This document shows positions 2-32,000 of a stretch of 32,000 bases of DNA, one piece after another. The DNA comes from an uncultured Candidatus Saccharibacteria bacterium (GTDB taxonomy: Bacteria > Patescibacteriota > UBA1384 > XYA2-FULL-43-10 > 1-14-0-10-43-13). The stretch spans positions 450,001-482,000 of the forward strand of contig CAZIYE010000001.1 of assembly GCA_964543385.1 (NCBI GenBank), read 5' to 3'. The notes below the pieces were generated by a model. It saw nothing but the letters and a program-made list of their open reading frames with translations, was not told the DNA's origin and searched no databases. Each line of letters starts with the position of its first letter. Position 1 is the first letter of the stretch. The position numbers and the translations under genes are program-made.

Positions 2-1393
2 CCAGAAGATATTGAAGCAATAGAGATTGTGAAAAAGATTATCGGCAAAAAGGTTTTGCCAAAGCTGACAACTGAAACTGACCTAAACCACGTTTTGGAC
101 CAATACCAAGGTTTCGAAAGTGAGGTGAAGGAAGCGATTGAAGATGTTGAAGATAAAGATCATAAAAAAGAAGAAGATCAAAAATCTGCGTCGATAATAT
201 CAAGCTCCGCGCCAGCATCTAGGATTGTTAGTTCGCTATTAAAACGAGCCATTAGAGATAAGGCATCAGACATACATATAGAACCATATGAGGATGAAGT
301 GACTGTACGTTTTCGTATTGATGGCGTCCTACATAAGAAAGTATCTCTGCCAAAAGATATTCAGCAAGCAGTAGTTTCACGCATCAAAATTTTATCAAAC
401 CTAAAAATAGACGAGCAACGTCTACCACAAGATGGACGCTTTAGTATTATGGCAGACAACCGTAAAGTTGATTTTCGTGTCTCAACCATGCCAATTGCAA
501 ATGGCGAAAAAGTAGTTATGAGAATCTTGGATAAGCTCTCAGGGATAATTTCAATTGATGACCTAGGCTTTCGAGAAAGAGATTTTTCTCTTATCAATAA
601 TAGCTGCCAAAAATCTCATGGAATGATCTTAGTAACTGGCCCTACTGGATCGGGCAAGACAACAACTCTTTACGCCCTGATACAGAAAATATACAGCGAA
701 GGTATTAATATCATTACTTTAGAGGACCCTATCGAATACCAAATCCCCGGCATTAATCAGAGCCAGGTGAATGCGGAAATAGATTACACTTTTGCCTCCG
801 GCCTGCGCTCCATTTTACGTCAAGACCCGGATGTCGTTATGATTGGAGAGATAAGAGATAGAGAAACAGCTGAGATGGCCGTACACGCAGCCTTGACTGG
901 TCATGTTGTTCTTTCCACACTTCATACCAATGATTCTGCAGGCGCAATTCCTAGATTAGTAGATATGAATATAGAACCATTTCTATTAAATTCATCTCTA
1001 AATCTGATTCTAGCCCAAAGATTAGCGAGAAGAATTTGTGATTCCTGCAAAGAAGAAATAAATCCATCCCAAGACCAATTAAAACTAATTAAGAATGAAT
1101 TAGACAAAATGCCCCGTGAAGAAAAGGCAAAAATCGGTAATAAAATTAAATTTTACAAGGGCAAGGGCTGTAAAGATTGTTCCAATACTGGATATAAAGG
1201 CAGAATAGGAATTTATGAAGTGCTTGAAGTTGATAAGAAGATAAAAGATTTAGTCGCCAATAAAGCGTCGTCGAATGGGATTGAGGAGAGTGCTATTCAA
1301 AATGGCATGACGACAATGATACAAGATGGAATTTTAAAAGCAATCAGCGGTCTTACTACAATTGAAGAAGTATGGAGGGTCACCAAGGAATAA
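2..1393 (+). CDS. pilB: Type IV pilus assembly (extension) ATPase, GspE/PilB family; 5'-truncated by window edge
   Basis: The frame is open from nt 2 (PEDIEAIEIVKK...), so the GTG at 29 is probably internal. Walker A GPTGSGKTTT, Asp box DPDVVMIGEIRD and His box TGHVVLSTLHTN are present, as is the C-terminal tetracysteine CDSC...CKDC typical of PilB/GspE. It is followed by pilC-pilM-pilN-pilO. Confidence 0.9.
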   Translation, partial: PEDIEAIEIVKKIIGKKVLPKLTTETDLNHVLDQYQGFESEVKEAIEDVEDKDHKKEEDQKSASIISSSAPASRIVSSLLKRAIRDKASDIHIEPYEDEVTVRFRIDGVLHKKVSLPKDIQQAVVSRIKILSNLKIDEQRLPQDGRFSIMADNRKVDFRVSTMPIANGEKVVMRILDKLSGIISIDDLGFRERDFSLINNSCQKSHGMILVTGPTGSGKTTTLYALIQKIYSEGINIITLEDPIEYQIPGINQSQVNAEIDYTFASGLRSILRQDPDVVMIGEIRDRETAEMAVHAALTGHVVLSTLHTNDSAGAIPRLVDMNIEPFLLNSSLNLILAQRLARRICDSCKEEINPSQDQLKLIKNELDKMPREEKAKIGNKIKFYKGKGCKDCSNTGYKGRIGIYEVLEVDKKIKDLVANKASSNGIEESAIQNGMTTMIQDGILKAISGLTTIEEVWRVTKE

Positions 1394-1394
1394 A

Positions 1395-2597
1395 ATGCTT
1401 TTTTACTACCAAGCAAAAAACAGCAAAGGGGAAACAAAAAGCGATTACTTAGAGACAAACGACAAGGCGTCTGCTTTGGCATCCCTAAAACAAAATGGGC
1501 TTTATGTAGTAAAAATTATTGAAAAGGATAAGGAAGATAGAATATCTAAGATGTTTTCGAGAAATAAGATTCCCTTAAAAGATAAAATTATATTCACAAA
1601 GCAGCTTGGGATAATGATAAGGTCAGGTCTATCAATTTTAGATGCTCTGAAATCTCTCCAAGAGGAGTCTTCTAACAAGAAAATGGAGACGATAATACTC
1701 AATTTGATCTCCGAAATTGAAGGGGGATCCCCGCTTTCAAAGGCACTTGCAAACCACAGAGAGGTATTTGGTGACATTTATATCAGCATGGTCCAATCTG
1801 GCGAAAAATCAGGAAAAGTTGATACTGTTCTAGAACGCTTGAACACTCAATTAGAGAATGATTATGATCTTCAAAGAAAAATTAAAGGAGCCCTTTCCTA
1901 TCCAATCTTTATACTTGTGACTATGATTGCGGTCGTATCTTTAGTAATCGTCTTAATCATTCCACAATTGAAAGTAATCTTCGATGATGCAGGGATCAGT
2001 TTGCCGCTACTTACCAGAATGATGATAGGTCTCAGTATGCTTTTGAAACAATATGGTATCTTCGCAGTCGCTATAATAGGCCTTCTTGTTTTTCTGGCAG
2101 CAAGATGGCGCAAAACCAATACAGGCAAATATTTCTTTGATAAAATTATACTGTCTATTCCAATTTTTGGTTCGTTGATCAAAAAGGCTTATATGGCACG
2201 CTTTACCAGGACTTTTGCTGCCCTCACATCCTCAGGTCTACCATTATTAGAAGTTTTTAAATCATCAGGCCAAGTTATCGGCAACGTTTTGTATGAAGAT
2301 GAAATAAAGAAGATGTCGCGAAAAGTAGAGGATGGCGAGCAATTATCTTCAGTGTTTAAAAAAAGCAAAATGTTCCCAAGTATAATTGGTCAACTTTCAG
2401 CAGTAGGCGAAAAGTCTGGAAATATAGACGAGGTTTTCGATAGTATCGCCGACTTCTTTGATAGAGAAGTCGATGGAATTACAGGCAACCTATCTAGCCT
2501 TCTAGAGCCAATTCTAATGGTCGTTATAGGAGCAGGCATAGGCCTAGTAGTAATATCTGTTTTACAACCAATTTATAGTTTAGTTAACGCAATTTAA
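1395..2597 (+). CDS. pilC: Type IV pilus platform protein, GspF/PilC family
   Basis: The N-terminus MLFYYQAKNSKGE...LKQNGLYVVKI is typical of PilC. There are two GspF-like repeats, each followed by TM helices. The ATG at 1395 lies 1 nt after the pilB stop and is preferred over track start 1362, which overlaps pilB by 32 nt. Confidence 0.9.
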   Translation: MLFYYQAKNSKGETKSDYLETNDKASALASLKQNGLYVVKIIEKDKEDRISKMFSRNKIPLKDKIIFTKQLGIMIRSGLSILDALKSLQEESSNKKMETIILNLISEIEGGSPLSKALANHREVFGDIYISMVQSGEKSGKVDTVLERLNTQLENDYDLQRKIKGALSYPIFILVTMIAVVSLVIVLIIPQLKVIFDDAGISLPLLTRMMIGLSMLLKQYGIFAVAIIGLLVFLAARWRKTNTGKYFFDKIILSIPIFGSLIKKAYMARFTRTFAALTSSGLPLLEVFKSSGQVIGNVLYEDEIKKMSRKVEDGEQLSSVFKKSKMFPSIIGQLSAVGEKSGNIDEVFDSIADFFDREVDGITGNLSSLLEPILMVVIGAGIGLVVISVLQPIYSLVNAI

Positions 2598-3596
2598 ATG
2601 ATAAACTTTTCAATCAAAAATTCGAATCCGATACTTGGCCTAGACATCGGCTATCAGACCTTGAAACTTGTTCAGATTAAACAGACCAAGCATGGGTCAT
2701 CTTTAATTGGCGCTATAGAGATACCATTGGAACAAAAAATTTTAGACAAAGACAAATTTCGCAATAAAGCAGACACTGCTAATCTGATAAAAGAAGCAAT
2801 AAAAGAGGCTAAGCCAAATTCAATAACAGCAAGAAGAATCGTGTCAGCACTTCCAGAAACTTTTGTTTTCAGCAAAACTGTACAAATGCCCAAGATGACA
2901 CAACAGGAATATTTGGCGGCAATACCAAATGAAATTGCAGGTTTTCTTCCTATCCCAATCAATGATGTTTATTTTGACTATCAAGTCCTTGTCGCTCATC
3001 CTGATGAGCCCTTAAATGATATATTGGTTGTCGCAACGCCAAAGAGATTAGTCGATGATTACGTCGAGATGGCACAGCTCGCTGGCCTAGAACTTGTAGC
3101 TTTGGAAACCAAACCATTGGCGGTTGGCAGAGCAATAATTGGAGATGATGACAAGAGTGGATCACTTGTCATCCATATAGGGACTGAATACTCTAGAATC
3201 GCTATTTGGGATGACGGCAATTTGAAACTAACAACCACCGTTAACACTGGACAGAATCAACTTCTAGAAAGCCTGGGATATACAGGAAAGCTGGATAAAA
3301 AAGAGATTAAACTAAGCGAAGCAAGTGAAAAAGATATTGCTATACCTTTAAATAATATTATTGAAGAAGCAATAAATGCCATTAAATATCATCTCAACAG
3401 AGGATATAAACCAAAACCAATTAGCAAAATTATGCTTTGTGGATCTGGTATATTAATAAGCGGTCTTGATAATTTAGTAGAAAAAGAAATCAAGATTAAA
3501 ACTGAGATCGAGAAAATAAAATTGACAGGCAAGGAATCATTGCAGCCACAATATATTGCAGCTTATGGTTTGGCTCTAAGAAAAGAGGAGGAATAA
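2598..3596 (+). CDS. pilM: Type IV pilus assembly protein PilM (actin-like ATPase fold)
   Basis: ILGLDIGYQTLKLVQIK phosphate-1-like motif. About 330 aa. Starts immediately after the pilC stop (TAAATG). Position between pilC and pilN. Confidence 0.8.
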   Translation: MINFSIKNSNPILGLDIGYQTLKLVQIKQTKHGSSLIGAIEIPLEQKILDKDKFRNKADTANLIKEAIKEAKPNSITARRIVSALPETFVFSKTVQMPKMTQQEYLAAIPNEIAGFLPIPINDVYFDYQVLVAHPDEPLNDILVVATPKRLVDDYVEMAQLAGLELVALETKPLAVGRAIIGDDDKSGSLVIHIGTEYSRIAIWDDGNLKLTTTVNTGQNQLLESLGYTGKLDKKEIKLSEASEKDIAIPLNNIIEEAINAIKYHLNRGYKPKPISKIMLCGSGILISGLDNLVEKEIKIKTEIEKIKLTGKESLQPQYIAAYGLALRKEEE

Positions 3597-3597
3597 T

Positions 3598-4134
3598 ATG
3601 ACAATCAACCTAATCCCTCCAGCATTAAAAAAACAAAAAGAATTAGCTGCCATTTCTAATCAAATAATCTTTGGTTTGTGCGTCATTTTAATTATGCTGG
3701 GAATAATGTCTGGGGCTATATTTGTTTATAATTCGACTTTGACAAAAGACATCTCCAAGACCGATCAAGATATCTTAGAGCAAAGCAAAAGGCTAAAAAG
3801 CTTTAAGGATTTAGAAGCATTAATCAAGACGGCCAATCAAAAGCTCGATAAAATCGATGATATCTCAAAAGGGAGAATGATTTGGAGCAAAATCATTGTA
3901 GAAATTTCAAATTTTACTCCGAAAGGAGTACAAATTAAAACTATGGATTTAAATCAGGACACAAATAACGGTGTGCTTTCAGGAGTCGCCACAACGCGCA
4001 AAGATATTGCATTGTTTAAGGAAAAATTAGAGAAAGGTGGCTTTAAGAACGTCACATTTACATCTTCATCGTATAATCAAAATACAAACGATTATACTTT
4101 TTCTCTTTCGGTTGGATTGGAGGGAAAACAATGA
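3598..4134 (+). CDS. pilN: PilN-like bitopic pilus alignment protein
   Basis: N-terminal INLIPP motif followed by a single TM, then a coiled-coil and a small C-terminal domain. The SD GGAGGA lies upstream. ATGA overlap with the next gene. Confidence 0.65.
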   Translation: MTINLIPPALKKQKELAAISNQIIFGLCVILIMLGIMSGAIFVYNSTLTKDISKTDQDILEQSKRLKSFKDLEALIKTANQKLDKIDDISKGRMIWSKIIVEISNFTPKGVQIKTMDLNQDTNNGVLSGVATTRKDIALFKEKLEKGGFKNVTFTSSSYNQNTNDYTFSLSVGLEGKQ

Positions 4135-4679
4135 ACTCAATCAAAACGACAATATTTTATCTCCTTTTAATTTGTTCACTGGTTACGATACTCATCGTAT
4201 TTATATTGCTACCTACCGTTACAAATATAAACGAGAATAAAAAGATTCTTTCAAGCAAACAAACAGAGTTTATGGATAATGAAGAGAAAATATCTATTTT
4301 AAGAGGCCTACAGAAGAATCCTAGCGACCTTAAAATAAGGATTGATAAGATCAACAATCTTTGGCCTACAAACAGCGAGATAAGCGGTTTCATTGTAAAC
4401 TTGGAGAATATCGCTGTTGCGCAAGATATAAACTTAAAAAATATTTCCATGTCTGAACCAAAAGCTGTTTCTGATAGCAAAAAAGACTCAAAAAACAAGA
4501 AAAAGATGTCCATTCAATTCTCCTTTGACACTCAAGCTGCTTTCAATCAAAGCCTGACAATAGTTAAAGACATGGAGACACTTAGCCGTTTTAATTCTAT
4601 TAAACAGATCAATTTGACCAGAGGTGATGAAGGGTTGGTTTTCATGAAAGTAACAGGGAATGTCTACTATGGCGAATAA
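4131..4679 (+). CDS. pilO: PilO-like bitopic pilus alignment protein
   Basis: Single N-terminal TM, coiled-coil, then a ferredoxin-like C-terminal region (FSFDTQAAF...MKVTGNVYY). Synteny after pilM and pilN. Confidence 0.55.
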   Translation: MNSIKTTIFYLLLICSLVTILIVFILLPTVTNINENKKILSSKQTEFMDNEEKISILRGLQKNPSDLKIRIDKINNLWPTNSEISGFIVNLENIAVAQDINLKNISMSEPKAVSDSKKDSKNKKKMSIQFSFDTQAAFNQSLTIVKDMETLSRFNSIKQINLTRGDEGLVFMKVTGNVYYGE

Positions 4680-4987: not shown

Positions 4988-5368
4988 TCACCTCAAAGAT
5001 AAAGACTTCTCAATAGCATCTATAACTTGAGCCGGCATTATTTCACTTTTGATAAGATATTGATCATACGGCTTCATCATATTTTTGATCTTATTTATTT
5101 CTTGTACAAGTGCTGTCAACAATATTACTGGGATATTAGCTGTTTTTTCATCCTCCCGAATCTTCTTCATGACATCAATACCATTAATCTTTGGCATCAT
5201 AATGTCTAACAAAATGACATCAGGCATATCTTTGTATACCTTCTCAATAGCCTCTTCGCCATCATAAGCAGAAACAATGCTATATCCCTCTGCTCTTAGC
5301 CTTTCAGCATACATCTCGTGCAAAGTCATATCGTCATCTACTAATAGAATTTTAGCGCTGGTTGCCAT
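4988..5368 (-). CDS. Stand-alone response-regulator receiver (CheY-like) protein
   Basis: ILLVDDD acidic pocket, phospho-acceptor LLDIMMP, LLTA and conserved K (YLIKS). 126 aa with no output domain. The AGGAGG SD overlaps the upstream gene's TAG stop. Confidence 0.85.
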   Translation of the reverse strand: MATSAKILLVDDDMTLHEMYAERLRAEGYSIVSAYDGEEAIEKVYKDMPDVILLDIMMPKINGIDVMKKIREDEKTANIPVILLTALVQEINKIKNMMKPYDQYLIKSEIMPAQVIDAIEKSLSLR

Positions 5369-5376
5369 TTTGCCTC

Positions 5377-6507
5377 CTAATCAGGTTTTTGATAAATTAC
5401 GTAGTCAAATAAATCATACAACGTACCGGATTGGCGGTCAATATTAGCACTGATAGTTCTCGTAGCACCGCTATAATAACCCGTTGAGATAATATTTGTA
5501 ACTGGACCAGGAATTACGTTGGTTTTTGTTTGGTTCAAGCAGGTTAAACTAGTAGCACACTGCATCGTAGATAACCCGATATAAGCGTCGTAAAATAAAG
5601 GTTTCATGGAGAGAGTTACTTTTGCAGGAGCAACTATGGGTTTTGTGCCAAATTGGGATTCAAATACAGAAATTAAATTATCCTTATGCCAAACAATATC
5701 ACCATTAGAAATACTGTTTGCTATTATTAGTTCATTTGGACAGCTAAGATCAGCTCCCCTGCCAAGGACTACGCAAGTGCTAGCTGCAGTCGCTGATGTT
5801 ATAATTGTTTTATATTCCCTGATATCCGTTCCTGTCCCAGTATAGTCAACTGTCAATTTTGCATACATTATAGCTTTCTTCTGGAAGTCAGGATCAGGAG
5901 ATGCAGGGCTCAAATATTTTGTCATTATTCTTATATCATTGTTTATGCCAGAATCAGCAAAATTGAGTTTACTTAAATCTATTTTGTAAGTTTCATCCCT
6001 CATCATTTTAAGAAATCCGTACTTGCCGCTACCATAGTTAGGGTCGAGAAGATCGATGGTGTTAAATGCTTCATCACCGTTAATATTATGACCATAAAGT
6101 GGAATAGATATGGTTCCGGCGAATCCCATCCTTAAATCATAAACCTGTTGATTTATATAAGTAGATGAGATTGTAGTGGTCTTGGCTATTCCACCATAAC
6201 CTGTGCCACGTGTAGTAATTGGTGATGGCACGTTAAGATATGATCTAAAAACCATATTTTCACCGACTTTCCAATCATAAGTAGCTGTGCCATCGCCATA
6301 AGGAATCTCTGCATTTCTATCATATCTGTATCTCAGGAAACCTTCCTCTATGCCGGACTCAGCTGCATAATAAGCACTAATACCATTTTCTGTAATACTG
6401 GCATTTCTGGATTCAATCAGAAATATACGGCCAAAAGAAAAAGCCAAACCGCCAATAGCTGCGACTAAGAATACTGCGATTACGATAGCTGAACCCCTCT
6501 GTTTCAT
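5377..6507 (-). CDS. PilX-N-like putative pilus-associated protein (large minor-pilin/tip-like)
   Basis: The start is chosen at the ATG at 6507 (SD AAGAGG upstream). The N-terminus MKQRGSAIVIAVFLVAAIGGLAFS...AYYAAESGIEEG resembles the PilX N-terminal domain (QRG + hydrophobic helix + AEAG helix). Two Cys pairs (CVVLGRGADLSC, CATSLTC) lie in the C-terminal part. The 38-aa extension in the track (to 6621) would overlap the kinase gene. Confidence 0.55.
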   Translation of the reverse strand: MKQRGSAIVIAVFLVAAIGGLAFSFGRIFLIESRNASITENGISAYYAAESGIEEGFLRYRYDRNAEIPYGDGTATYDWKVGENMVFRSYLNVPSPITTRGTGYGGIAKTTTISSTYINQQVYDLRMGFAGTISIPLYGHNINGDEAFNTIDLLDPNYGSGKYGFLKMMRDETYKIDLSKLNFADSGINNDIRIMTKYLSPASPDPDFQKKAIMYAKLTVDYTGTGTDIREYKTIITSATAASTCVVLGRGADLSCPNELIIANSISNGDIVWHKDNLISVFESQFGTKPIVAPAKVTLSMKPLFYDAYIGLSTMQCATSLTCLNQTKTNVIPGPVTNIISTGYYSGATRTISANIDRQSGTLYDLFDYVIYQKPD

Positions 6508-6562
6508 CTCGGCCTCTTTATTTAAGTAAATTATAATCGAAATAAGAAAAGTTTGCAAAAGG

Positions 6563-6591
6563 TTATCAATCCAAAAGAATTTGGGTATAAT
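6563..6591 (+). promoter_or_regulatory. Putative sigma70-type promoter of the histidine kinase operon
   Basis: TTATCA (6563-6568), 17 nt spacer, then TATAAT (6586-6591). The ATG at 6601 lies only 9 nt after the -10 and has no SD. Confidence 0.4.
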
Positions 6592-6600
6592 GTTGATACC

Positions 6601-7884
6601 ATGAGAAAAAATCAAAGCCACCTTACCTGGGAAGCTATCACTTGGATATTGATTATCGCTCTCACTCTAACCACAGTGATATTTTTTCCGTGGTATATAG
6701 CCGGCAATGTATTGAGTATTATTCTTGGGATAGCAGTTGCCGCTACAGTTTTTTGGTATTTCAAAAGCAGACAGCTGTATTTGGAAAGTCAAGATAAGAG
6801 TAAAAAAATCTTGGCAGATCAAAAAGAAATTAAAAACCACCAAAAGACAATTGATCTGATTTATGAAAACTCCGCCGATGGTATTCTGATATTGGACAAT
6901 GAACAAAGGATAGAAAGCTTTTCCCCAGGCATGGAAAATATTACGGGATATGAGTCTCGTGAAGTTATTGGACTATTAGCAAAACAGGTTCTAAAATTTC
7001 GTGCGGAAAAAGGAGAAAGTCTTTTGCCGGATCTAATGTTTTTGCCAAAAGACATCAGAAAAAGACCTTATTCAAAAAGCTATATCACAACAAAAGAAGG
7101 GCGAGAAATAACTGTTGAGGCAAGTTACACCTCTATAAAAACAAAGGACGAACACAAAGCGATGGCTATTATCCGTGATGTTACTTATGCTGAAGATTTA
7201 GTGACGCGCGACAAGGAATTTATTGCCATTACATCTCATCAAATGAACACCCCTCTTTCAATAATGCGTGGCTATCTTTCTATGCTAATTAATGGCAAGG
7301 CCGGTAAAATTTCTGAAAATCAAAAAAAATATTTACAGGAGGTATATGATTCTACCAAGAAGCTTATATCCCTCACTAATAATCTACTATCGATATCAAG
7401 AATTGAGCAGGAAAAAGTTGTAATCGAAAAATCAGAATTATCAACTAAAGATCTAGCTGCGCAACTCCGGAAGAATGCGAATACAGAGGCTATAAGCAAA
7501 GAAGTTTCTCTGGAAATAGAAATGCCCGAGCCAGACTTTATTTTCTATGCAGATGAAGCAAAACTAGTCCAAGCATTATCAAACCTCATCGATAACGCTA
7601 TAAAATATACAAAAAAAGGCAAAATAAAAGTTTCCTTCAGCAAGAAAAGTGATTCTGTCACTATTTGTATCAGTGACACTGGTATCGGTATCCCTGACGC
7701 CGACACCGAAAAGATTGGGGAGAAATTTTACAGATCTCAAAATGCTATTGATACTGACAATAAGGGTACTGGTTTAGGATTATTCATTGCAAGAACTATA
7801 ATTGAAAAACACAATGGACAAATACAACTCAGTAGCAAAATAAATTCAGGAACAAAAATAACAATAAACTTACCAGTGAGGTGA
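6601..7884 (+). CDS. Membrane sensor histidine kinase with PAS domain
   Basis: Two N-terminal TMs. PAS-like IYENSADGILILDNEQRIESFSPGMENITGY. H-box ITSHQMNTPLSIMRGY, N-box LSNLIDNAIKYT, G1 DTGIGI, G2 GTGLGL. The track start TTG at 6553 is an alternative. Confidence 0.85.
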   Translation: MRKNQSHLTWEAITWILIIALTLTTVIFFPWYIAGNVLSIILGIAVAATVFWYFKSRQLYLESQDKSKKILADQKEIKNHQKTIDLIYENSADGILILDNEQRIESFSPGMENITGYESREVIGLLAKQVLKFRAEKGESLLPDLMFLPKDIRKRPYSKSYITTKEGREITVEASYTSIKTKDEHKAMAIIRDVTYAEDLVTRDKEFIAITSHQMNTPLSIMRGYLSMLINGKAGKISENQKKYLQEVYDSTKKLISLTNNLLSISRIEQEKVVIEKSELSTKDLAAQLRKNANTEAISKEVSLEIEMPEPDFIFYADEAKLVQALSNLIDNAIKYTKKGKIKVSFSKKSDSVTICISDTGIGIPDADTEKIGEKFYRSQNAIDTDNKGTGLGLFIARTIIEKHNGQIQLSSKINSGTKITINLPVR

Positions 7885-8258
7885 ATATGAACATGAGAGA
7901 CAAAAATATTTTAATAATTGACGATGAAGAACCAATACTTAGAATGTATTCTGCTTCGTTAAGTGAATACAATATTTTGACTGCTTCAAACGGAGAAGAG
8001 GGATTGGCAGTCGCAAAATCCGAGAAACCAGATCTGATTTATCTTGATATTATCATGCCTAAGATAAACGGCTTGGATGTACTCAAAAAACTGAAAGATG
8101 ATGATCAGACAAAGGAAATCCCTGTCATTCTCCTAACAAACTTGCCAGAGGAAGCGTCAAAAGACAAAGCCGAGGCGCTCGGCGCATATGATTACTTCGT
8201 AAAGGTTAATTATGAACCAGAAGACCTCCTCGAAGCGACAAAGAAGATATTGAAATAA
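7881..8258 (+). CDS. Stand-alone response-regulator receiver protein
   Basis: ILIIDDEE, phospho-acceptor YLDIIMP, LLTN and FVKV. No output domain. GTGA overlap with the kinase stop (alternative ATGs at 7887 and 7893 after GAGGTG). Confidence 0.85.
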   Translation: MNMNMRDKNILIIDDEEPILRMYSASLSEYNILTASNGEEGLAVAKSEKPDLIYLDIIMPKINGLDVLKKLKDDDQTKEIPVILLTNLPEEASKDKAEALGAYDYFVKVNYEPEDLLEATKKILK

Positions 8259-26597: not shown

Positions 26598-27305
26598 CTA
26601 AATATTTCTCGTCACCACAGCTCCATATATCCTCTTAGCCCCTGCTTGTTTTAAAATCCTGGCACATTCGCTAAGAGTAGCTCCTGTTGTAAAAACATCA
26701 TCAATCAACAATATATTCTTACCAAAAACAAATTCATTATCATCACATTTGAAGGCGTCTATCATATTATTATATCTACCACTTCTTTGTAATTTTACTT
26801 GATTCTTAGTATTTTTAATTCTTATTAACGCATCAGCACCAGATATGCATAGCCTTTTAGATAAATACCTTGCAATTAATTCAGATTGGTTGAACCCACG
26901 TATGTTATATTTTAGGCGATGCAAAGGAACGGGAACTATCACTATATCGGTTGGAATATCCATATTTTTAATACGCTGATAGATTAGTTCTCCACATATG
27001 TCAGATAGACCGGTAAGCCCATGATATTTAAAGCTTTTTATCAGCTGCTTAACTATGAGCGAATGATAGCTAGTCGCAACATATACCGAGAAAAGATGAC
27101 TGTTATTTTTATTCCTGCAACGAGGACAAAACCTTGAATTTACCGATATTCTTCCACACCCAGGACAGGTTGAAGTGGCTGTTTTTTCTACGTTAGAAAG
27201 GCAATTGCAACATAAGAGATACCCATATTCTCCACAAAATATACACTTGTTTGGAAAGAATAAATTTATAATATTTTCGTAGGTTTTATTTAGCCAAAGG
27301 TGCAT
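26598..27305 (-). CDS. comFC: ComF-family phosphoribosyltransferase-domain protein (ComFC-like)
   Basis: N-terminal zinc-ribbon cysteines CIFC...CCNC...CPGC...CPRC. C-terminal PRTase motif ILLIDDVFTTGATL. Confidence 0.8.
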   Translation of the reverse strand: MHLWLNKTYENIINLFFPNKCIFCGEYGYLLCCNCLSNVEKTATSTCPGCGRISVNSRFCPRCRNKNNSHLFSVYVATSYHSLIVKQLIKSFKYHGLTGLSDICGELIYQRIKNMDIPTDIVIVPVPLHRLKYNIRGFNQSELIARYLSKRLCISGADALIRIKNTKNQVKLQRSGRYNNMIDAFKCDDNEFVFGKNILLIDDVFTTGATLSECARILKQAGAKRIYGAVVTRNI

Positions 27306-27836: not shown

Positions 27837-27868
27837 AAGGGCTATTACTTTAAACTAGCTCTTTTTTT
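27837..27868 (+). terminator. Intrinsic terminator after hsp20
   Basis: AAGGGCTA (27837-27844) / TAGCTCTT (27856-27863), an 8-bp stem with one G-U pair and an 11-nt loop, followed by a T7 tract. Confidence 0.5.
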
Positions 27869-27869
27869 A

Positions 27870-27878
27870 TGTTATAAT
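27870..27878 (+). promoter_or_regulatory. Extended -10 promoter upstream of galU
   Basis: TGTTATAAT lies immediately after the hsp20 terminator T-tract. About a 64-nt leader with SD AGAGAGG before the ATG at 27943. Confidence 0.5.
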
Positions 27879-27942: not shown

Positions 27943-28827
27943 ATGAGAAAAATTAGAAAAGCAGTAATTCCAGCTGCCGGCTACGGCACACGTTTTTTGC
28001 CAGTTACCAAGGCAATGCCAAAAGAAATGTTGCCCATCGTAGATAAGCCCGTTATTCAATATGTTGTCGAGGAACTAGTGGAAGCGGGGATTGAACAAAT
28101 TATAATTGTAACCGGCTGGCACAAGAGAGCTATCGAGGATCATTTTGACAGGCACCTTGAACTCGAATATAAGCTCAAAGAGAGTGGTAAACTAGAACAA
28201 TTAGAAGAAATAAAAAAGCTATCTGAGATGGCCGAATTTGTATATGTAAGACAAAGACAACAAAGGGGGAATGGCGATGCAATCCTAACAGCAAAGAATA
28301 TAGTAGGGGACGAACCATTTATTGTTTTTTGGGGAGACGATTTTATTTCAGCAGAACCAAGTAGGGCTAGACAACTTATTAGCGCTTACGATAAATATCA
28401 AACCACAATACTAGGAGGAGTCAGGACCAATGACCCTGCAGACGCTAAAAAATATGGTTTTGCTAAAGGGATAGAAATGGCTGATGGAGCTATAAAAATA
28501 GAAGAACTTATTGAAAAGCCCGGTATGGATAAAATGCCTTCAAACCTTGCCATAGTTTCTGGACAAGTTTATTCTCCGGACATTTTTAGCGCACTAGAGA
28601 GTATTAATGTCAGAGAAGGGGAAGAATTAGTCTACATCGACGGGGTCAATAAATTAAGAGAAGAAGGAAAAGATGCTTACGCCGTTGAAATAAAGAACGG
28701 TAAATATTATGATTGTGGTAATGTTGATCAATATTTAAAGACCAATATAGAAATTGCCCTTAAAAGACGGGGTAAAGACAGTGATCTTGCAGATTTTATA
28801 AGAAAAATTGCACAAGAAATTGAATGA
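27943..28827 (+). CDS. galU: UTP--glucose-1-phosphate uridylyltransferase
   Basis: KAVIPAAGYGTRFLPVTKAMPKEMLPIVDKP signature, VEKP-like EKPG. 294 aa. Confidence 0.9.
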   Translation: MRKIRKAVIPAAGYGTRFLPVTKAMPKEMLPIVDKPVIQYVVEELVEAGIEQIIIVTGWHKRAIEDHFDRHLELEYKLKESGKLEQLEEIKKLSEMAEFVYVRQRQQRGNGDAILTAKNIVGDEPFIVFWGDDFISAEPSRARQLISAYDKYQTTILGGVRTNDPADAKKYGFAKGIEMADGAIKIEELIEKPGMDKMPSNLAIVSGQVYSPDIFSALESINVREGEELVYIDGVNKLREEGKDAYAVEIKNGKYYDCGNVDQYLKTNIEIALKRRGKDSDLADFIRKIAQEIE

Positions 28828-28864: not shown

Positions 28865-30241
28865 ATGAAACACTTTTTCAAAATTTCTAGCTATATCCTA
28901 ATAGCAATATTTTTTTCTATTGCGCTTTCCGGCTGTACAAAGAAGGACAAAGAAGATCCAAAAGCTAAAGAGATTATCGTTTGGAGTTTTGAAGACGAAG
29001 ATATTTGGAAGCCTGTAGCCAAGACATTTGCTACAAAGTACAAAGGCTATAAACTGATCTATCAGAAACAAACATTTGACTCTGATTATGAGAATCGTGT
29101 ATTAAATTCTATTTTATCTAATCAAGGTCCAGACGTCTGGAATATGCCCAGTGACTGGGTTTACAGACACAAAGACAAGTTAGCTTCTATCTCTAAGAAG
29201 GGGATTGGCATAGATAAATATATCCAATCTATCAATCAATCGGTGACATTTGATGAAAAAGTTTACGCTCTTTCTCCATATGCAGAACCATTGATGGTAT
29301 ATTACAACCCAAAAATATTTGAGAATGCCCTCCGTGAATATAACGATGCAAATACAGGATCTGAGAACATCGAAAACCGCAAAGAAGCAAGCAGACTCCT
29401 GAGAGAGGTTCCTCAAACATGGACCGATTTTATAAAAACAGTCAATTTAATAACAAAGATAGATCAAGACAACCAATTTGAAATTTCTGGGGTAGCAATG
29501 GGAACAGATAAAATATCAAATTCTGCTGACATCCTTTACCTTTTAATGCTAGAAAATGAGACCAAAATATTGTCAGATAATTTAAAACAAGCAAATTTTA
29601 ATCTGCCGGTAGACACCGCACAAGAAACAAAAGATATACCAGGACTTAGAGCATTAGAGTTTTATACCTCATTTTCTGATCCATCCAGTGAGAATTATTC
29701 TTGGGATGACTCCTTGGGAAATGATATTGAGGCTTTTGTAGAAGGCAAAACGGCAATGATTTTTGGCTATAGTTCACTTCAGAATCACCTCTCGCAGAAA
29801 TACCCAAATTTTAGATATAAAAGAGCTTTTACTCCGCAGCTAACTGCAGAATCATCCAAGGTAGTAGACTATGCTAAAAGTAATGTCTTCGCTGTAACTG
29901 CCTTAACCTCTAAATATGCCGAGAAGCCAAAGGCATGTTGGAATCTTCTTAATATATTATCTAGTGAATCCCCCGCAGATAGCTTTAATTCTGCGCTCAA
30001 AGTTCATACATCAATAAAAGCTTCTGGTGATGTAGATTTTGGAGACAGAAATACCAATAGCCCTGAAAAAGTTTCTCTTGCCACTGCAAAATCTCTGGTT
30101 AAAGGAAGGGACCCGGTAGAATTTGATAGGATCATAAGACAGAGCATAGCCGCAGTCAATCAAGGGGATCAAGATCTACAATCAGCGCTAGACACAGCAG
30201 CAAGAGACATTACAGATATTCTTCGTAAAGAAAATTGGTAA
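28865..30241 (+). CDS. Lipoprotein, extracellular solute-binding protein family 1-like (orphan)
   Basis: Signal peptide with lipobox LSGC (Cys24). Sugar-type SBP features (IIVWSFEDEDIW, GPDVWNMPSDW). SD GGAGGG. No permease or ATPase genes adjacent. Confidence 0.7.
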   Translation: MKHFFKISSYILIAIFFSIALSGCTKKDKEDPKAKEIIVWSFEDEDIWKPVAKTFATKYKGYKLIYQKQTFDSDYENRVLNSILSNQGPDVWNMPSDWVYRHKDKLASISKKGIGIDKYIQSINQSVTFDEKVYALSPYAEPLMVYYNPKIFENALREYNDANTGSENIENRKEASRLLREVPQTWTDFIKTVNLITKIDQDNQFEISGVAMGTDKISNSADILYLLMLENETKILSDNLKQANFNLPVDTAQETKDIPGLRALEFYTSFSDPSSENYSWDDSLGNDIEAFVEGKTAMIFGYSSLQNHLSQKYPNFRYKRAFTPQLTAESSKVVDYAKSNVFAVTALTSKYAEKPKACWNLLNILSSESPADSFNSALKVHTSIKASGDVDFGDRNTNSPEKVSLATAKSLVKGRDPVEFDRIIRQSIAAVNQGDQDLQSALDTAARDITDILRKENW

Positions 30242-30247
30242 AAACTG

Positions 30248-30658
30248 ATGGGTAAAGAAATGTCAAAAAATAAAAAGACGAATCATCGCCTTAAAATTAT
30301 AACCATGTTTATAATTGCGGCTTTCTTAATTTCGATAGCTCTTGTCTTTTTATTTCCTGAGTTTGAAGCGAGTAGCAGTGATGTTTTACCTTCTGGGATT
30401 GATCTGGGTGCTCCTATTCCAGGCTCTGGAGCAACTAGCAATTTCTTTGAATATGTTACTGCTATAGTTGCATTCTGTACTAATATTCTTGGGCCAGTAC
30501 TCGCGATAGCAATGATTATTTATGGAGGATATCGATACATCTTCTCCCAAGGAGATAGCACCGCCTTGACAGAAGGAAAAGACATTATCTTCGGCGCTAT
30601 TATTGGCTATGCGATTCTTTTTCTGACAAAACTCATAATAAATATTATTGGGGTTTAA
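30248..30658 (+). CDS. TrbC/VirB2-like (T4SS-pilin-like) small membrane protein, paralogue 1
   Basis: N-terminal signal/anchor (IITMFIIAAFLISIALVFLF...FEA/SSS), then a helix, the loop IIYGGYRYIFSQGDSTALTEGKD, then a helix. Lies 6 nt after the SBP gene. Confidence 0.6.
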   Translation: MGKEMSKNKKTNHRLKIITMFIIAAFLISIALVFLFPEFEASSSDVLPSGIDLGAPIPGSGATSNFFEYVTAIVAFCTNILGPVLAIAMIIYGGYRYIFSQGDSTALTEGKDIIFGAIIGYAILFLTKLIINIIGV

Positions 30659-30666
30659 CTATATTA

Positions 30667-31029
30667 ATGAAAAAAGTTATTATTGAAAAAATATACTATG
30701 CCTCGTTACTAACAATAGTAATACTAGCGTCTTTTTCAACTGCAAAGGCTGCCACAGGCATCGAGATTAATAGTGGATCGAGCATGGATAGCCTGCCCGC
30801 TATATTAGAATGGCTTATAAATGTATTTTTAGTTGGAATTTTAGGAATAATTGCCTTTGTTGCATTCCTTGTTGGAGGATTTATGTATCTTCTAGCTGGT
30901 TCAGACGCTGCTAAAGCCGAAAAAGGGAAGAAGACTTTAGCTTATGCTGTCACAGGCATGATTTTAGCAATTTTCTCTTATTCTTTCACTTCCATAATAG
31001 TAGATATTTTGAATAATATTTTCCAATGA
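30667..31029 (+). CDS. TrbC/VirB2-like small membrane protein, paralogue 2
   Basis: Sec signal peptide ending AKA/ATG. Helix, loop FLVGGFMYLLAGSDAAKAEKGKK, helix. Confidence 0.6.
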   Translation: MKKVIIEKIYYASLLTIVILASFSTAKAATGIEINSGSSMDSLPAILEWLINVFLVGILGIIAFVAFLVGGFMYLLAGSDAAKAEKGKKTLAYAVTGMILAIFSYSFTSIIVDILNNIFQ

Positions 31030-31364
31030 TCAAATTAATAGAAAAAGTAAGTGCAGAAGTAAAAGTTAATTCCGATCCCATGCCAGATGGGATACTTGGT
31101 TTTGTCCGTCAATTTGGTGGTACAGAGGCAAGCTTGGGTTCCGTAGTAGCAATGATAGAGAAAGCGATTGAAGTAGGGCTCACTTTTGCCGGTGTCTTTG
31201 CTTTAATAATGTTTTTGTGGGGAGCATTCGACTATATGTTTTCTTTAGGTGATGACGAAAAAGTTAAAAAATCTAGCCAAACCATGCTTTGGTCATTCAT
31301 AGGTCTTGTAATTATTGCTGCTGCGCGTACAATATTAAATAGAGTAATTGATTTATTAAAATGA
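31026..31364 (+). CDS. TrbC/VirB2-like small membrane protein, paralogue 3
   Basis: ATGA overlap with paralogue 2. Helix, loop FLWGAFDYMFSLGDDEKVKKSSQ, helix. No obvious signal peptide. Confidence 0.55.
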   Translation: MIKLIEKVSAEVKVNSDPMPDGILGFVRQFGGTEASLGSVVAMIEKAIEVGLTFAGVFALIMFLWGAFDYMFSLGDDEKVKKSSQTMLWSFIGLVIIAAARTILNRVIDLLK

Positions 31365-31374
31365 GGAGGTGTTA

Positions 31375-31695
31375 ATGAGTTTTATTATCAAAGCATTGGC
31401 AGCCAATGATGATGTGAATACTGACAATCTTGGCCTTCAGCTCGTTGGTGGTGCTAGTGATATCCAGGGGTTGATAACGGCAGTTTTGCCATGGGTAAGT
31501 TTAGCAGCAGGTGTAATTGCATTTGCTTATCTAATTTATTCAGGCTTCCTTTATCTTTCAGCCGGTGGTAATGCCGAGTCTGCAAAGAAGGGCCAACAAG
31601 GAATTCTAAATGCAATTATTGGTTTGATTATTATTGCATTGGCCTACACTATCACCACTGCTCTGGTTGGAACATTCAATAATACCACCAGTTAA
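31375..31695 (+). CDS. TrbC/VirB2-like small membrane protein, paralogue 4
   Basis: The ATG at 31375 lies 5 nt after AGGAGG (the track start GTG 31369 sits inside the SD). Helix, loop LIYSGFLYLSAGGNAESAKKGQQ, helix. Confidence 0.6.
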   Translation: MSFIIKALAANDDVNTDNLGLQLVGGASDIQGLITAVLPWVSLAAGVIAFAYLIYSGFLYLSAGGNAESAKKGQQGILNAIIGLIIIALAYTITTALVGTFNNTTS

Positions 31696-31715
31696 TTCTA
31701 GCCATAAAGTCTTAC

Positions 31716-31752
31716 AAAAAGCCCTTAAGTAGTGATGCTAAGGGGCTTTTTT
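31716..31752 (+). terminator. Intrinsic terminator after paralogue 4
   Basis: AAAAAGCCCTTAAG / CTAAGGGGCTTTTTT imperfect hairpin with a GC core and a T6 tract. Confidence 0.65.
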
Positions 31753-31815
31753 AGTAGAAGTTGGCAATATAGCTAATGAATAAATAGTCAGGAGTTTTAA
31801 AATAAAAACAAACAT

Positions 31816-32000
31816 ATGATCACTGCCGAAAATATAAAAAATTTGTTTGTCCCAATAATAAATCAGACTGTGACCGCGGAACAGCTTGTAGCTTCAATAG
31901 CCAATATTGCTGCTTCTGTTGCTGGTATAATAGCCTTCTTTTATCTTTTATATGCCGGACTATTATATATAACTTCTGGTAATAATCCAGATCAAGCAAA
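31816..32000 (+). CDS. TrbC/VirB2-like small membrane protein, paralogue 5 (3'-truncated by window edge; not in ORF track)
   Basis: The ATG at 31816 follows an in-frame TAA at 31798. It translates to MITAENIKNLFVPIINQTVTAEQLVASIANIAASVAGIIAFFYLLYAGLLYITSGNNPDQA..., which has the same helix and G-x-L-Y-I-x-S-G-N loop as paralogues 1-4. Confidence 0.55.
   Translation, partial: MITAENIKNLFVPIINQTVTAEQLVASIANIAASVAGIIAFFYLLYAGLLYITSGNNPDQA

Follow-up and report, generated by a model that had tools for sequence, protein, structure and literature searches.

Tandem arrays of small genes associated with a type IV secretion system (T4SS) are a published feature of the Patescibacteria. McLean et al. 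(2020; PMC7427843) described a conserved array of four to six small proteins next to the T4SS in Saccharibacteria and other bacteria within the candidate phyla radiation (CPR), termed the 'secreted protein array' in Nanosynbacter lyticus TM7x. Wang et al. (2023; PMC10633639) treat the arrays as predicted pilins and show, by transposon sequencing (Tn-seq) of Southlakia epibionticum ML1, that both array and T4SS are essential. The ML1 pilin genes (SEML1_0014-0019) adjoin the T4SS genes (0006-0013) and Hsp20 near the start of the chromosome numbering, and the excerpted Tn-seq table scores SEML1_0017 to 0019 each as essential. The survey of Quinonero-Coronel et al. (2025; PMC12102498) lists 441 arrays of 2-11 pilin genes from 383 Patescibacterial assemblies, with a mean intra-array identity of 25% (maximum 54%) and with virB4 often near dnaA, dnaN and rnpA. 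A 2025 review regards the arrays as the feature that distinguishes the Patescibacterial T4SS from other Gram-positive-type systems. Here we describe a further example, five tandem pilin-like genes in a stretch of 32,000 nucleotides (nt) (contig CAZIYE010000001.1, positions 450,001 to 482,000; 'the window' below).

In our reading, the five genes encode differentiated pilin-like membrane proteins of the VirB2/TrbC superfamily that belong to an origin-proximal, MPF-FATA-like T4SS of a Patescibacterium; we put the probability of this at about 0.65. The array type is already known, and one more leaves the picture of the Patescibacterial T4SS unchanged.

In the survey (PMC12102498), an array consists of at least two PF18895 or PF04956 genes of low mutual identity, either tandem or with one gene in between, in a Patescibacterial host, with a pilin gene within ∼ 20 coding sequences of virB4. 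The window has tandem, same-strand, small PF18895 genes of low identity (21-37%), which are chromosomal and lie near dnaA (∼ 4 kb off) with Hsp20 nearby, as in the published arrays; homologues are labelled Berkelbacteria, and virB4 is placed ∼ 13 genes off by synteny only. The neighbouring Gram-positive-type T4SS (PrgI and VirB4), likewise placed by synteny here, is a further likeness. In ML1, by contrast, the pilin genes abut the T4SS, whereas here genes for PilB, yidC, rnpA, dnaA-dnaN-recF-dciA, a 2806-residue protein and an M23 peptidase, as well as two genes predicted from synteny, lie in between. The ML1 gene table has no solute-binding protein (SBP) in the cluster, whereas the window and most of 80 related loci carry a pair of genes for GalU and an SBP_bac_1 protein. 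These 80 loci come from species-representative genomes and were retrieved with a profile of orthologues of the fourth pilin gene (copy 4); figures for related loci describe that subfamily. Essentiality has been demonstrated for the ML1 array only.

The array comprises five T4SS_pilin genes

The array and its terminator are laid out as follows:
30248..30658, + strand: pilin copy 1, 136 residues; long basic N-region, hydrophobic segment at residues 17-35, two-helix hairpin
30667..31029, + strand: pilin copy 2, 120 residues; Sec-type signal peptide (..STAKA/AT) by inspection, and hairpin
31026..31364, + strand: pilin copy 3, 112 residues; no N-terminal hydrophobic segment by hydropathy
31375..31695, + strand: pilin copy 4, 106 residues; the best-conserved copy
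31716..31753, + strand: intrinsic terminator 3' of copy 4; GC-rich hairpin (∼ 31716-31751) between an A-run and a U-run
31816..32000 (window end), + strand: pilin copy 5; full product of 99 residues, ending at window-equivalent position 32115

An earlier note, made from this sequence, had proposed at least five same-strand open reading frames (ORFs) of common architecture. All five are present on the + strand, but the array goes no further: a public Logan contig, identical to the window across a 5667-nt overlap, gives exactly five genes. The tight packing and the terminator behind copy 4 that the note had described were both borne out. Copies 1 and 2 are separated by 8 nt, copies 2 and 3 overlap at an ATGA stop/start, and the ATG of copy 4 is preceded by a GGAGG Shine-Dalgarno motif at a spacing of 6 nt. 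RNA folding of the 66-nt stretch with the terminator gave -24.2 kcal/mol (z = -3.8), and none of 200 shuffled sequences was as stable. Promoter-like sites, identified by consensus match only, lie 5' of copy 5 (31761-31788) and ahead of galU (27849-27878; TTTAAA-18-TATAAT with TG). Judged from the sequence, galU, sbp and pilins 1-4 look like a single operon closed by the terminator, and pilin 5 looks like a separate transcription unit.

Copies 1-4 score 31.3, 33.1, 36.9 and 40.5 bits (E 2e-7 to 3e-10) against the Pfam T4SS_pilin profile PF18895, all above its gathering cut-off of 26.6 bits (whole-protein scores). The fragment of copy 5 inside the window reaches 21.9 bits (E 1.8e-4); the full-length 99-residue protein is recorded as PF18895 at E ≤ 1e-5. 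Since each ORF matches PF18895 independently, chance is excluded as the source of the family signal. All 115 members sampled from the related loci match PF18895, full-length copy 5 among them, and 38 of these also match the TrbC/VirB2 profile PF04956 (E ≤ 0.01; best E 2.2e-7). The PF04956 matches indicate relatedness at the superfamily level rather than membership. The note's assignment to a TrbC/VirB2-like T4SS_pilin family is borne out at the family level.

The family is large: the copy 4 orthologue profile retrieved 63,587 representatives at 50% identity (E ≤ 1e-3). Precomputed PF18895 assignments were available for 35 copy 4 homologues, 28 of which were aligned. Among NCBIfam models, copy 1 has a sub-cut-off match to TrbC. 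The best NCBIfam match of copies 2-5 is NF045849, the Mbov_0395 pilin-like conjugal transfer protein, at 20.4, 34.7, 28.6 and 23.7 bits; all four stay below the cut-off of 40 bits. These matches (E 1e-8 to 3e-4) cover almost the whole 80-residue model, and the mycoplasma protein (Mbov_0395/MMCAP2_0565), from an integrative and conjugative element, shares with the array a wall-less or monoderm host and an MPF-FATA-type T4SS. We take it to be present as one copy on a mobile element rather than as a multi-gene array in the chromosome.

Profile similarity runs consistently to pilin families and to no holin, immunity or toxin family. It is thus very improbable that the copies have no relation to pilins and are small membrane proteins of the holin-like or immunity kind, or that they are toxin subunits secreted via Sec and exported by the T4SS, even though a two-transmembrane hairpin is a generic fold (Foldseek returned generic helical hairpins only) and a secreted array, with pertussis toxin as the analogy, has been put forward (McLean et al., 2020; PMC7427843). 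Soluble secreted subunits could not carry two long hydrophobic helices, the surroundings of the array are not those of a phage or bacteriocin locus, and throughout the phylum the array occupies a conserved, origin-proximal core position on the chromosome.

Many of the top family representatives are apparent single chains in which 2-15 hairpins follow one another in tandem without signal peptides between them. Examples are P0044 (820 residues, 8 hairpins), P0058 (262 residues, 3 hairpins) and P0074 (1775 residues, 15 matched stretches). They are either true fusions or products of stop-codon read-through where UGA is reassigned.

Hairpin architecture and predicted topology

Hydropathy analysis places the two hairpin helices in all five copies; copies 1 and 2 alone have a further hydrophobic segment at the N-terminus, in agreement with the note's assignment of signal peptides to these two. 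Copies 3-5 begin with a short amphipathic motif followed by an acidic variable stretch, and their N-terminal parts are net acidic. The loop between the helices is net positive in copies 2, 4 and 5 and has a net charge of -1 in copy 1; our script did not resolve the loop of copy 3. Pairwise identity among the copies is 21-37%, copies 4 and 5 being the closest pair (37%). The note had called the copies almost unalignable outside the loop; this is corrected here, as both helices can be aligned across all of them.

An AlphaFold2 model of copy 4, calculated with 28 orthologues, starts with a short helix, is disordered over residues 10-29 and then forms a hairpin whose two helices (residues 30-62 and 67-104) are joined by a 4-residue turn, with predicted local distance difference test (pLDDT) values of 80-92 for the hairpin. 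The charge distribution and this model predict a cytoplasmic position for the short basic loop and an extracellular one for both termini, as in membrane VirB2-type pilins. The proteins thus share with VirB2, TraA and TrbC the two hydrophobic helices, the short positive loop and, by prediction, the topology. The N-terminal 10-residue motif of copy 4, M-x-[LF]-I-x-K-A-L-A-A (31375-31404), is conserved in leaderless orthologues. Its length falls short of a Sec signal peptide, and it may have a role in targeting, processing or packing.

Among the solved and classical systems, VirB2 of the T-pilus, TraA of the F-pilus and TrbC of RP4 resemble the array proteins in the two-helix hairpin, the short basic loop, the small size and the long leaders (copies 1-2), and profile matches to them are near full-length but sub-threshold. 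They differ in that copies 3-5 are leaderless, the host is monoderm and without an outer membrane, and an enzyme for cyclisation or processing was not identified; the PF04956 scores and the structure search set out below are further differences. The Pam pili of CPR bacteria (bioRxiv 10.64898/2026.03.03.709456) were considered and found to be unrelated, their pilins having an Ig-fold and assembling by donor-strand exchange.

Positional orthology of the copies

Tandem same-strand arrays are the rule in the related loci, mostly with 3-7 hairpin genes. Best matches are position-specific: across 22 related loci, copy 1 matches position 1 in most, copy 2 position 2 and copy 3 position 3. For copy 4 the match lies at the last position (41-66% identity), and copy 5 is an extra protein of the copy 4 type. 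By these comparisons the array copies are old, ordered paralogues with their own orthologues at each position. Because each position has its own orthologues across genomes, the copies are most likely non-redundant subunits rather than interchangeable variants.

The N-terminal parts diverge much faster than the hairpins; between copy 4 and its counterpart in one relative (L091), identity is 83% in the hairpin and 21% in the N-terminal part. Of all genes in the block, copy 2 has changed fastest, with 58% identity to the closest relative. Its best matches in many related loci are position-2 proteins of 404-1044 residues with a C-terminal hairpin, for instance:
L007, 5109-7247: long position-2 pilin
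L008, 1530-4277: long position-2 pilin
L019, 6322-9456: long position-2 pilin
L058, 7458-9815: long position-2 pilin
L091, 8372-9613: long position-2 pilin

Most Berkelbacteria-like relatives have a position-2 protein of ∼ 400-1000 residues, in which an N-terminal domain (∼ 300-950 residues) without a Pfam match precedes the hairpin, whereas in the window and its closest relative it has just 118-120 residues (signal peptide plus hairpin in the window). Close relatives thus differ by gain and loss of a large, presumably outward-facing domain on the position-2 subunit, and this subunit is a candidate for contact with the host. A CARDB-like, adhesin-type domain, considered for the long position-2 pilin of L091, was dropped as unsupported by Pfam.

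The closest relative (L090; copy 4 83% identical) has four copies, with no copy 5 and with a PilB gene right after copy 4; the more distant L091 has five, copy 5 included. Since L090 lacks it, copy 5 is a presence/absence polymorphism within the lineage. Close homologues whose source names are informative come from metagenome-assembled genomes (MAGs) labelled Candidatus Berkelbacteria, and the host of the array is probably a Patescibacterium of the Berkelbacteria lineage.

A further explanation has the copies as interchangeable variants of one major pilin, with one or few expressed at once for antigenic or host-range variation. Such variation is the proposed role of VirB2 paralogues in Bartonella and Anaplasma, and Quinonero-Coronel et al. 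(PMC12102498) suggest it for Patescibacteria. The high divergence within the array would suit this idea, as would the fast evolution of the presumably surface-exposed N-terminal parts, the differing copy number among close relatives (four in L090, five here) and the position of copy 5 behind the terminator with a promoter-like site of its own. We nevertheless regard it as distinctly improbable. Positional orthologues across distant genomes point to old, stably kept, non-redundant paralogues, the packing of copies 1-4 in one apparent operon points to co-expression, and the family includes the apparent fused chains of 2-15 hairpins. In the excerpted ML1 table, moreover, SEML1_0017 to 0019 are each essential and hence not redundant. 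The VirB2 clusters of Anaplasma phagocytophilum, Bartonella and the Rickettsiales (cited in PMC12102498) share with the array tandem diverged copies, a single T4SS and a proposed host interaction. They belong, however, to diderm intracellular pathogens for which antigenic variation is proposed, whereas positional orthologues across genera point to fixed roles here.

Positional orthology, the packing of copies 1-4 and the per-gene essentiality in the Southlakia excerpt thus favour one heteromeric assembly over switching. Of the functions raised by the earlier note, differentiated subunits of a single assembly gain from the orthology and subunit switching loses. The fixed positions argue for distinct, non-redundant subunits rather than for antigenic variation.

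A different architecture was seen in L032, L047, L048, L056 and L071 (MAGs labelled Uhrbacteria, Falkowbacteria and others), where a pilin-domain protein of 636-916 residues is followed by a giant of 1946-3375 residues. The one giant inspected (L048) has an N-terminal pilin hairpin followed by IPT/TIG and Ig-like domains. The pair sits downstream of hisS, without an SBP gene.

Proximity to the replication origin and probable linkage to a T4SS

Beyond copy 5, the identical contig continues with PilB, yidC, yidD, rnpA, dnaA, dnaN, recF and dciA, so that the array lies ∼ 4 kb from dnaA with rnpA and dnaN alongside. The first of these, a PilB/GspE-type ATPase gene (window-equivalent 32118-33764), is convergent with the array and its stop codon is 2 nt past that of copy 5. 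A type IV pilus cluster, apart from the array, is found at the other end of the window:
29-4679: type IV pilus cluster; T2SSE ATPase (454-residue ORF from 29), PilC (T2SSF), PilM, PilN, PilO

The PilB-type gene just beyond the window end is thus a second one. Its adjacency raises the idea that the copies are type IV pilus (T4P/T2SS-type) subunits assembled by this ATPase; a PilB-type homologue occupies the same downstream place in 20 of the 80 related loci, and the T4P cluster (PilB, PilC, PilM, PilN, PilO) at 29-4679 is a second one in the same stretch. The sequences themselves make this hardly credible: by inspection all five lack the class III prepilin leader (G/[FM]xxxE), and in place of one hydrophobic helix at the N-terminus they have a two-transmembrane hairpin fold. 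The PilB gene runs towards the array and is not co-oriented with it, FtsH takes its place in other lineages, and every family assignment points to T4SS pilins. Type IV pilus minor-pilin operons do offer a functional analogy. They too hold ordered, diverged paralogues at fixed positions, some with large adhesive domains, but their fold and assembly machine are unrelated and the array copies have no prepilin leader.

On the same contig, 3' of dciA and on the opposite strand (L086, 10289-20276), lie the gene for the 2806-residue protein and then a 572-residue M23 peptidase gene, which overlaps the start of the former. The 2806-residue protein has no Pfam match. A threshold scan finds hydrophobic segments at its N-terminus and near residue 2620, the latter reading as two adjacent stretches. 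An extended VirB6 was considered for this protein and is unsupported, given the lack of a Pfam match and only two hydrophobic segments in the threshold scan. A homologue search with its C-terminal 501 residues returned nothing, as did a metagenome scan with the single M23 sequence.

A metagenome scan with a three-sequence M23 alignment retrieved a contig of a relative that carries VirB4 and PrgI genes. Two contigs of this relative overlap with 100% identity across 5280 nt, and its DciA and M23 proteins are 75% and 65% identical to those of the window genome. Its gene order is dnaN-recF-dciA, giant protein, M23 peptidase, beta-propeller protein, M74-like peptidase and VirB4-like ATPase, followed by a 322-residue protein, PrgI (VirB3-like) and a 272-residue protein. 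The VirB4-like ATPase (617 residues; motif AKSGSGKS) matches P-loop_TraG at 104 bits as well as AAA_10 and DUF87. The block from the giant protein to PrgI is a probable T4SS operon with two cell-wall hydrolases. Because of the synteny with this relative, whose M23 protein is 65% identical, we infer that VirB4 in the window genome would lie ∼ 21 kb or ∼ 13 genes from the array, across the origin. The earlier note had held that a genome without any T4SS ATPase would count against pilins; that objection does not arise, as a VirB4-like protein is present in the relative's syntenic block, although VirB4 itself was not found in the part of this genome that was covered (see below).

Proposed assembly

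As predicted from charge distribution and model, each protein would insert into the membrane as a helical hairpin, copies 1-2 by means of their Sec-type leaders and copies 3-5 without a cleavable leader, plausibly via YidC. By analogy with VirB2, TraA and TrbC, we propose that a VirB4-family ATPase would then pull the hairpins from the membrane and stack them to build a filament or conduit, with the basic loops towards the lumen. The variable N-terminal segments would lie outside, where they could contact host cells; in relatives, the position-2 segment is a whole domain of ∼ 300-900 residues. Judging by orthology, the copies are most likely non-redundant subunits of one heteromeric assembly, in which the copy 4/5 type may be the conserved core and copies 1-3 accessory or adaptor types.

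Linkage to a galU-SBP pair and weight of the evidence

Directly upstream of the array, the window contains two genes:
27943..28827, + strand: galU-like UTP-glucose-1-phosphate uridylyltransferase gene (Pfam NTP_transferase)
28865..30241, + strand: SBP_bac_1-family solute-binding lipoprotein gene, 458 residues; lipobox LSGC read from the translation

The galU gene is probably the first gene of the operon that leads into the pilin array. The window SBP scores 34 bits against Pfam SBP_bac_1 (cut-off 26), homologues from related loci reach 119 bits, and the SBP stop codon is 6 nt 5' of copy 1. An SBP gene lies directly upstream of the array and on the same strand in 45 of the 61 related loci with enough upstream sequence, and in 38 of these 45 a GalU homologue on the same strand precedes it. 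The gaps are often < 50 nt or the genes overlap. Loci linked in this way include L007, L011, L020, L040 and L091, and the MAG labels among the related loci are Berkelbacteria, Doudnabacteria, Parcubacteria and generic Patescibacteria. In the window and the related loci the SBP gene has no ABC permease or ATPase gene beside it and is thus an orphan. Neither SBP nor GalU nor PilB is mentioned in the T4SS survey of Quinonero-Coronel et al. (2025; PMC12102498), and our literature search found no paper joining Patescibacteria, VirB2 and a substrate-binding protein.

This conserved linkage keeps alive what we see, on genomic context, as the main rival, a reading that we consider unlikely. The hairpins and the co-transcribed SBP_bac_1 lipoprotein, perhaps with GalU, would form a surface capture or uptake module that is largely independent of VirB4, the hairpin serving as an anchor or scaffold that displays the variable N-terminal domains and tethers the ligand-binding lipoprotein at the host interface. 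Besides the frequency and closeness of the linkage, the orphan state of the SBP and the silence of the survey on it, this reading draws on the many family members with large extracellular domains on the hairpin (some IPT/TIG and Ig-like) and on a phmmer search for VirB4 and PrgI, in which none of the 80 related arrays had a homologue within 10 kb. It has to contend with the homology of the family to conjugative pilins and, in ML1, with an array inside a T4SS cluster without an adjacent SBP, where both array and T4SS are essential. In addition, the T4SS cluster is inferred to lie ∼ 13 genes off here, which is a modest separation, gene order in reduced genomes can persist without a functional link, and the 80 loci were chosen by copy 4 similarity, so the figure of 45 of 61 describes one subfamily.

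A more far-reaching version, in which the deeply conserved operon of galU, the orphan SBP and the ordered hairpins is a functional unit and a conjugative-pilin scaffold has been turned into an import or capture device, seems to us quite unlikely. If it were true, the SBP and the N-termini on a T4SS-built conduit would take up sugars or other host molecules and the T4SS would serve mainly for uptake; the chains of 2-15 fused hairpins would fit a structure of fixed stoichiometry rather than an open-ended pilus. The linkage of an orphan SBP across several Patescibacterial lineages is in any case a lead on possible uptake by the machine.

Several observations weigh against a T4SS pilin. The tight and widespread partner of the array is the GalU-SBP pair and not a set of T4SS genes. 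Within 10 kb of the related arrays VirB4 and PrgI are missing, as just described, and neither the window nor the next 18 kb downstream of it in this genome revealed a VirB4, VirB6 or VirD4 gene. For the window this agrees with the earlier note: no T4SS domain was found among its annotated ORFs (likely genes among ORFs of at least 90 residues, with DnaE as the sole ORF above 500). The Pfam comparison that the note had proposed came out divided. PF18895 was confirmed for copies 1-4, but every copy stayed below the PF04956 gathering cut-off of 27.9 bits (whole-protein scores): copy 2 reached 20.8 bits (E 4.5e-4, over nearly the whole profile), copy 1 16.6 bits (E 0.009) and copy 3 16.3 bits, and copies 4 and 5 gave no match. 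By hydropathy, copies 3-5 do not have the cleavable-leader-type N-terminus that is usual in VirB2, TraA and TrbC. A Foldseek search of the copy 4 model against the PDB found no pilin; its best hit (E 0.53) and the others were generic helical hairpins, which do not discriminate. A sequence-profile search of the PDB gave chance-level matches only. Finally, Gram-positive-type T4SSs are normally without pili, and no T4SS pilus has been observed in any Patescibacterium, as the 2025 review also notes, the function of the system being termed 'completely unknown' in the literature. With these points taken into account, we retain the reading of the five proteins as differentiated T4SS pilin-like subunits at the probability given above.

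Other contents of the window

A ComFC-like gene (double zinc ribbon and phosphoribosyltransferase domains) lies at 26598-27305 on the - strand. In Berkelbacteria-like loci a ComFC-like gene and an HSP20 gene stand ahead of galU. Doudnabacteria-labelled loci, and several others, have a ComM/Mg-chelatase-like gene there instead. Because one or the other occupies this place, competence-type genes recur beside the array.

Besides the array, the window contains housekeeping genes, a two-component system and the type IV pilus cluster. That cluster on one side and two tRNA genes on the other flank the following group:
4988-8258: two stand-alone response-regulator receiver genes, a PAS histidine kinase gene and a 414-residue ORF without a Pfam match

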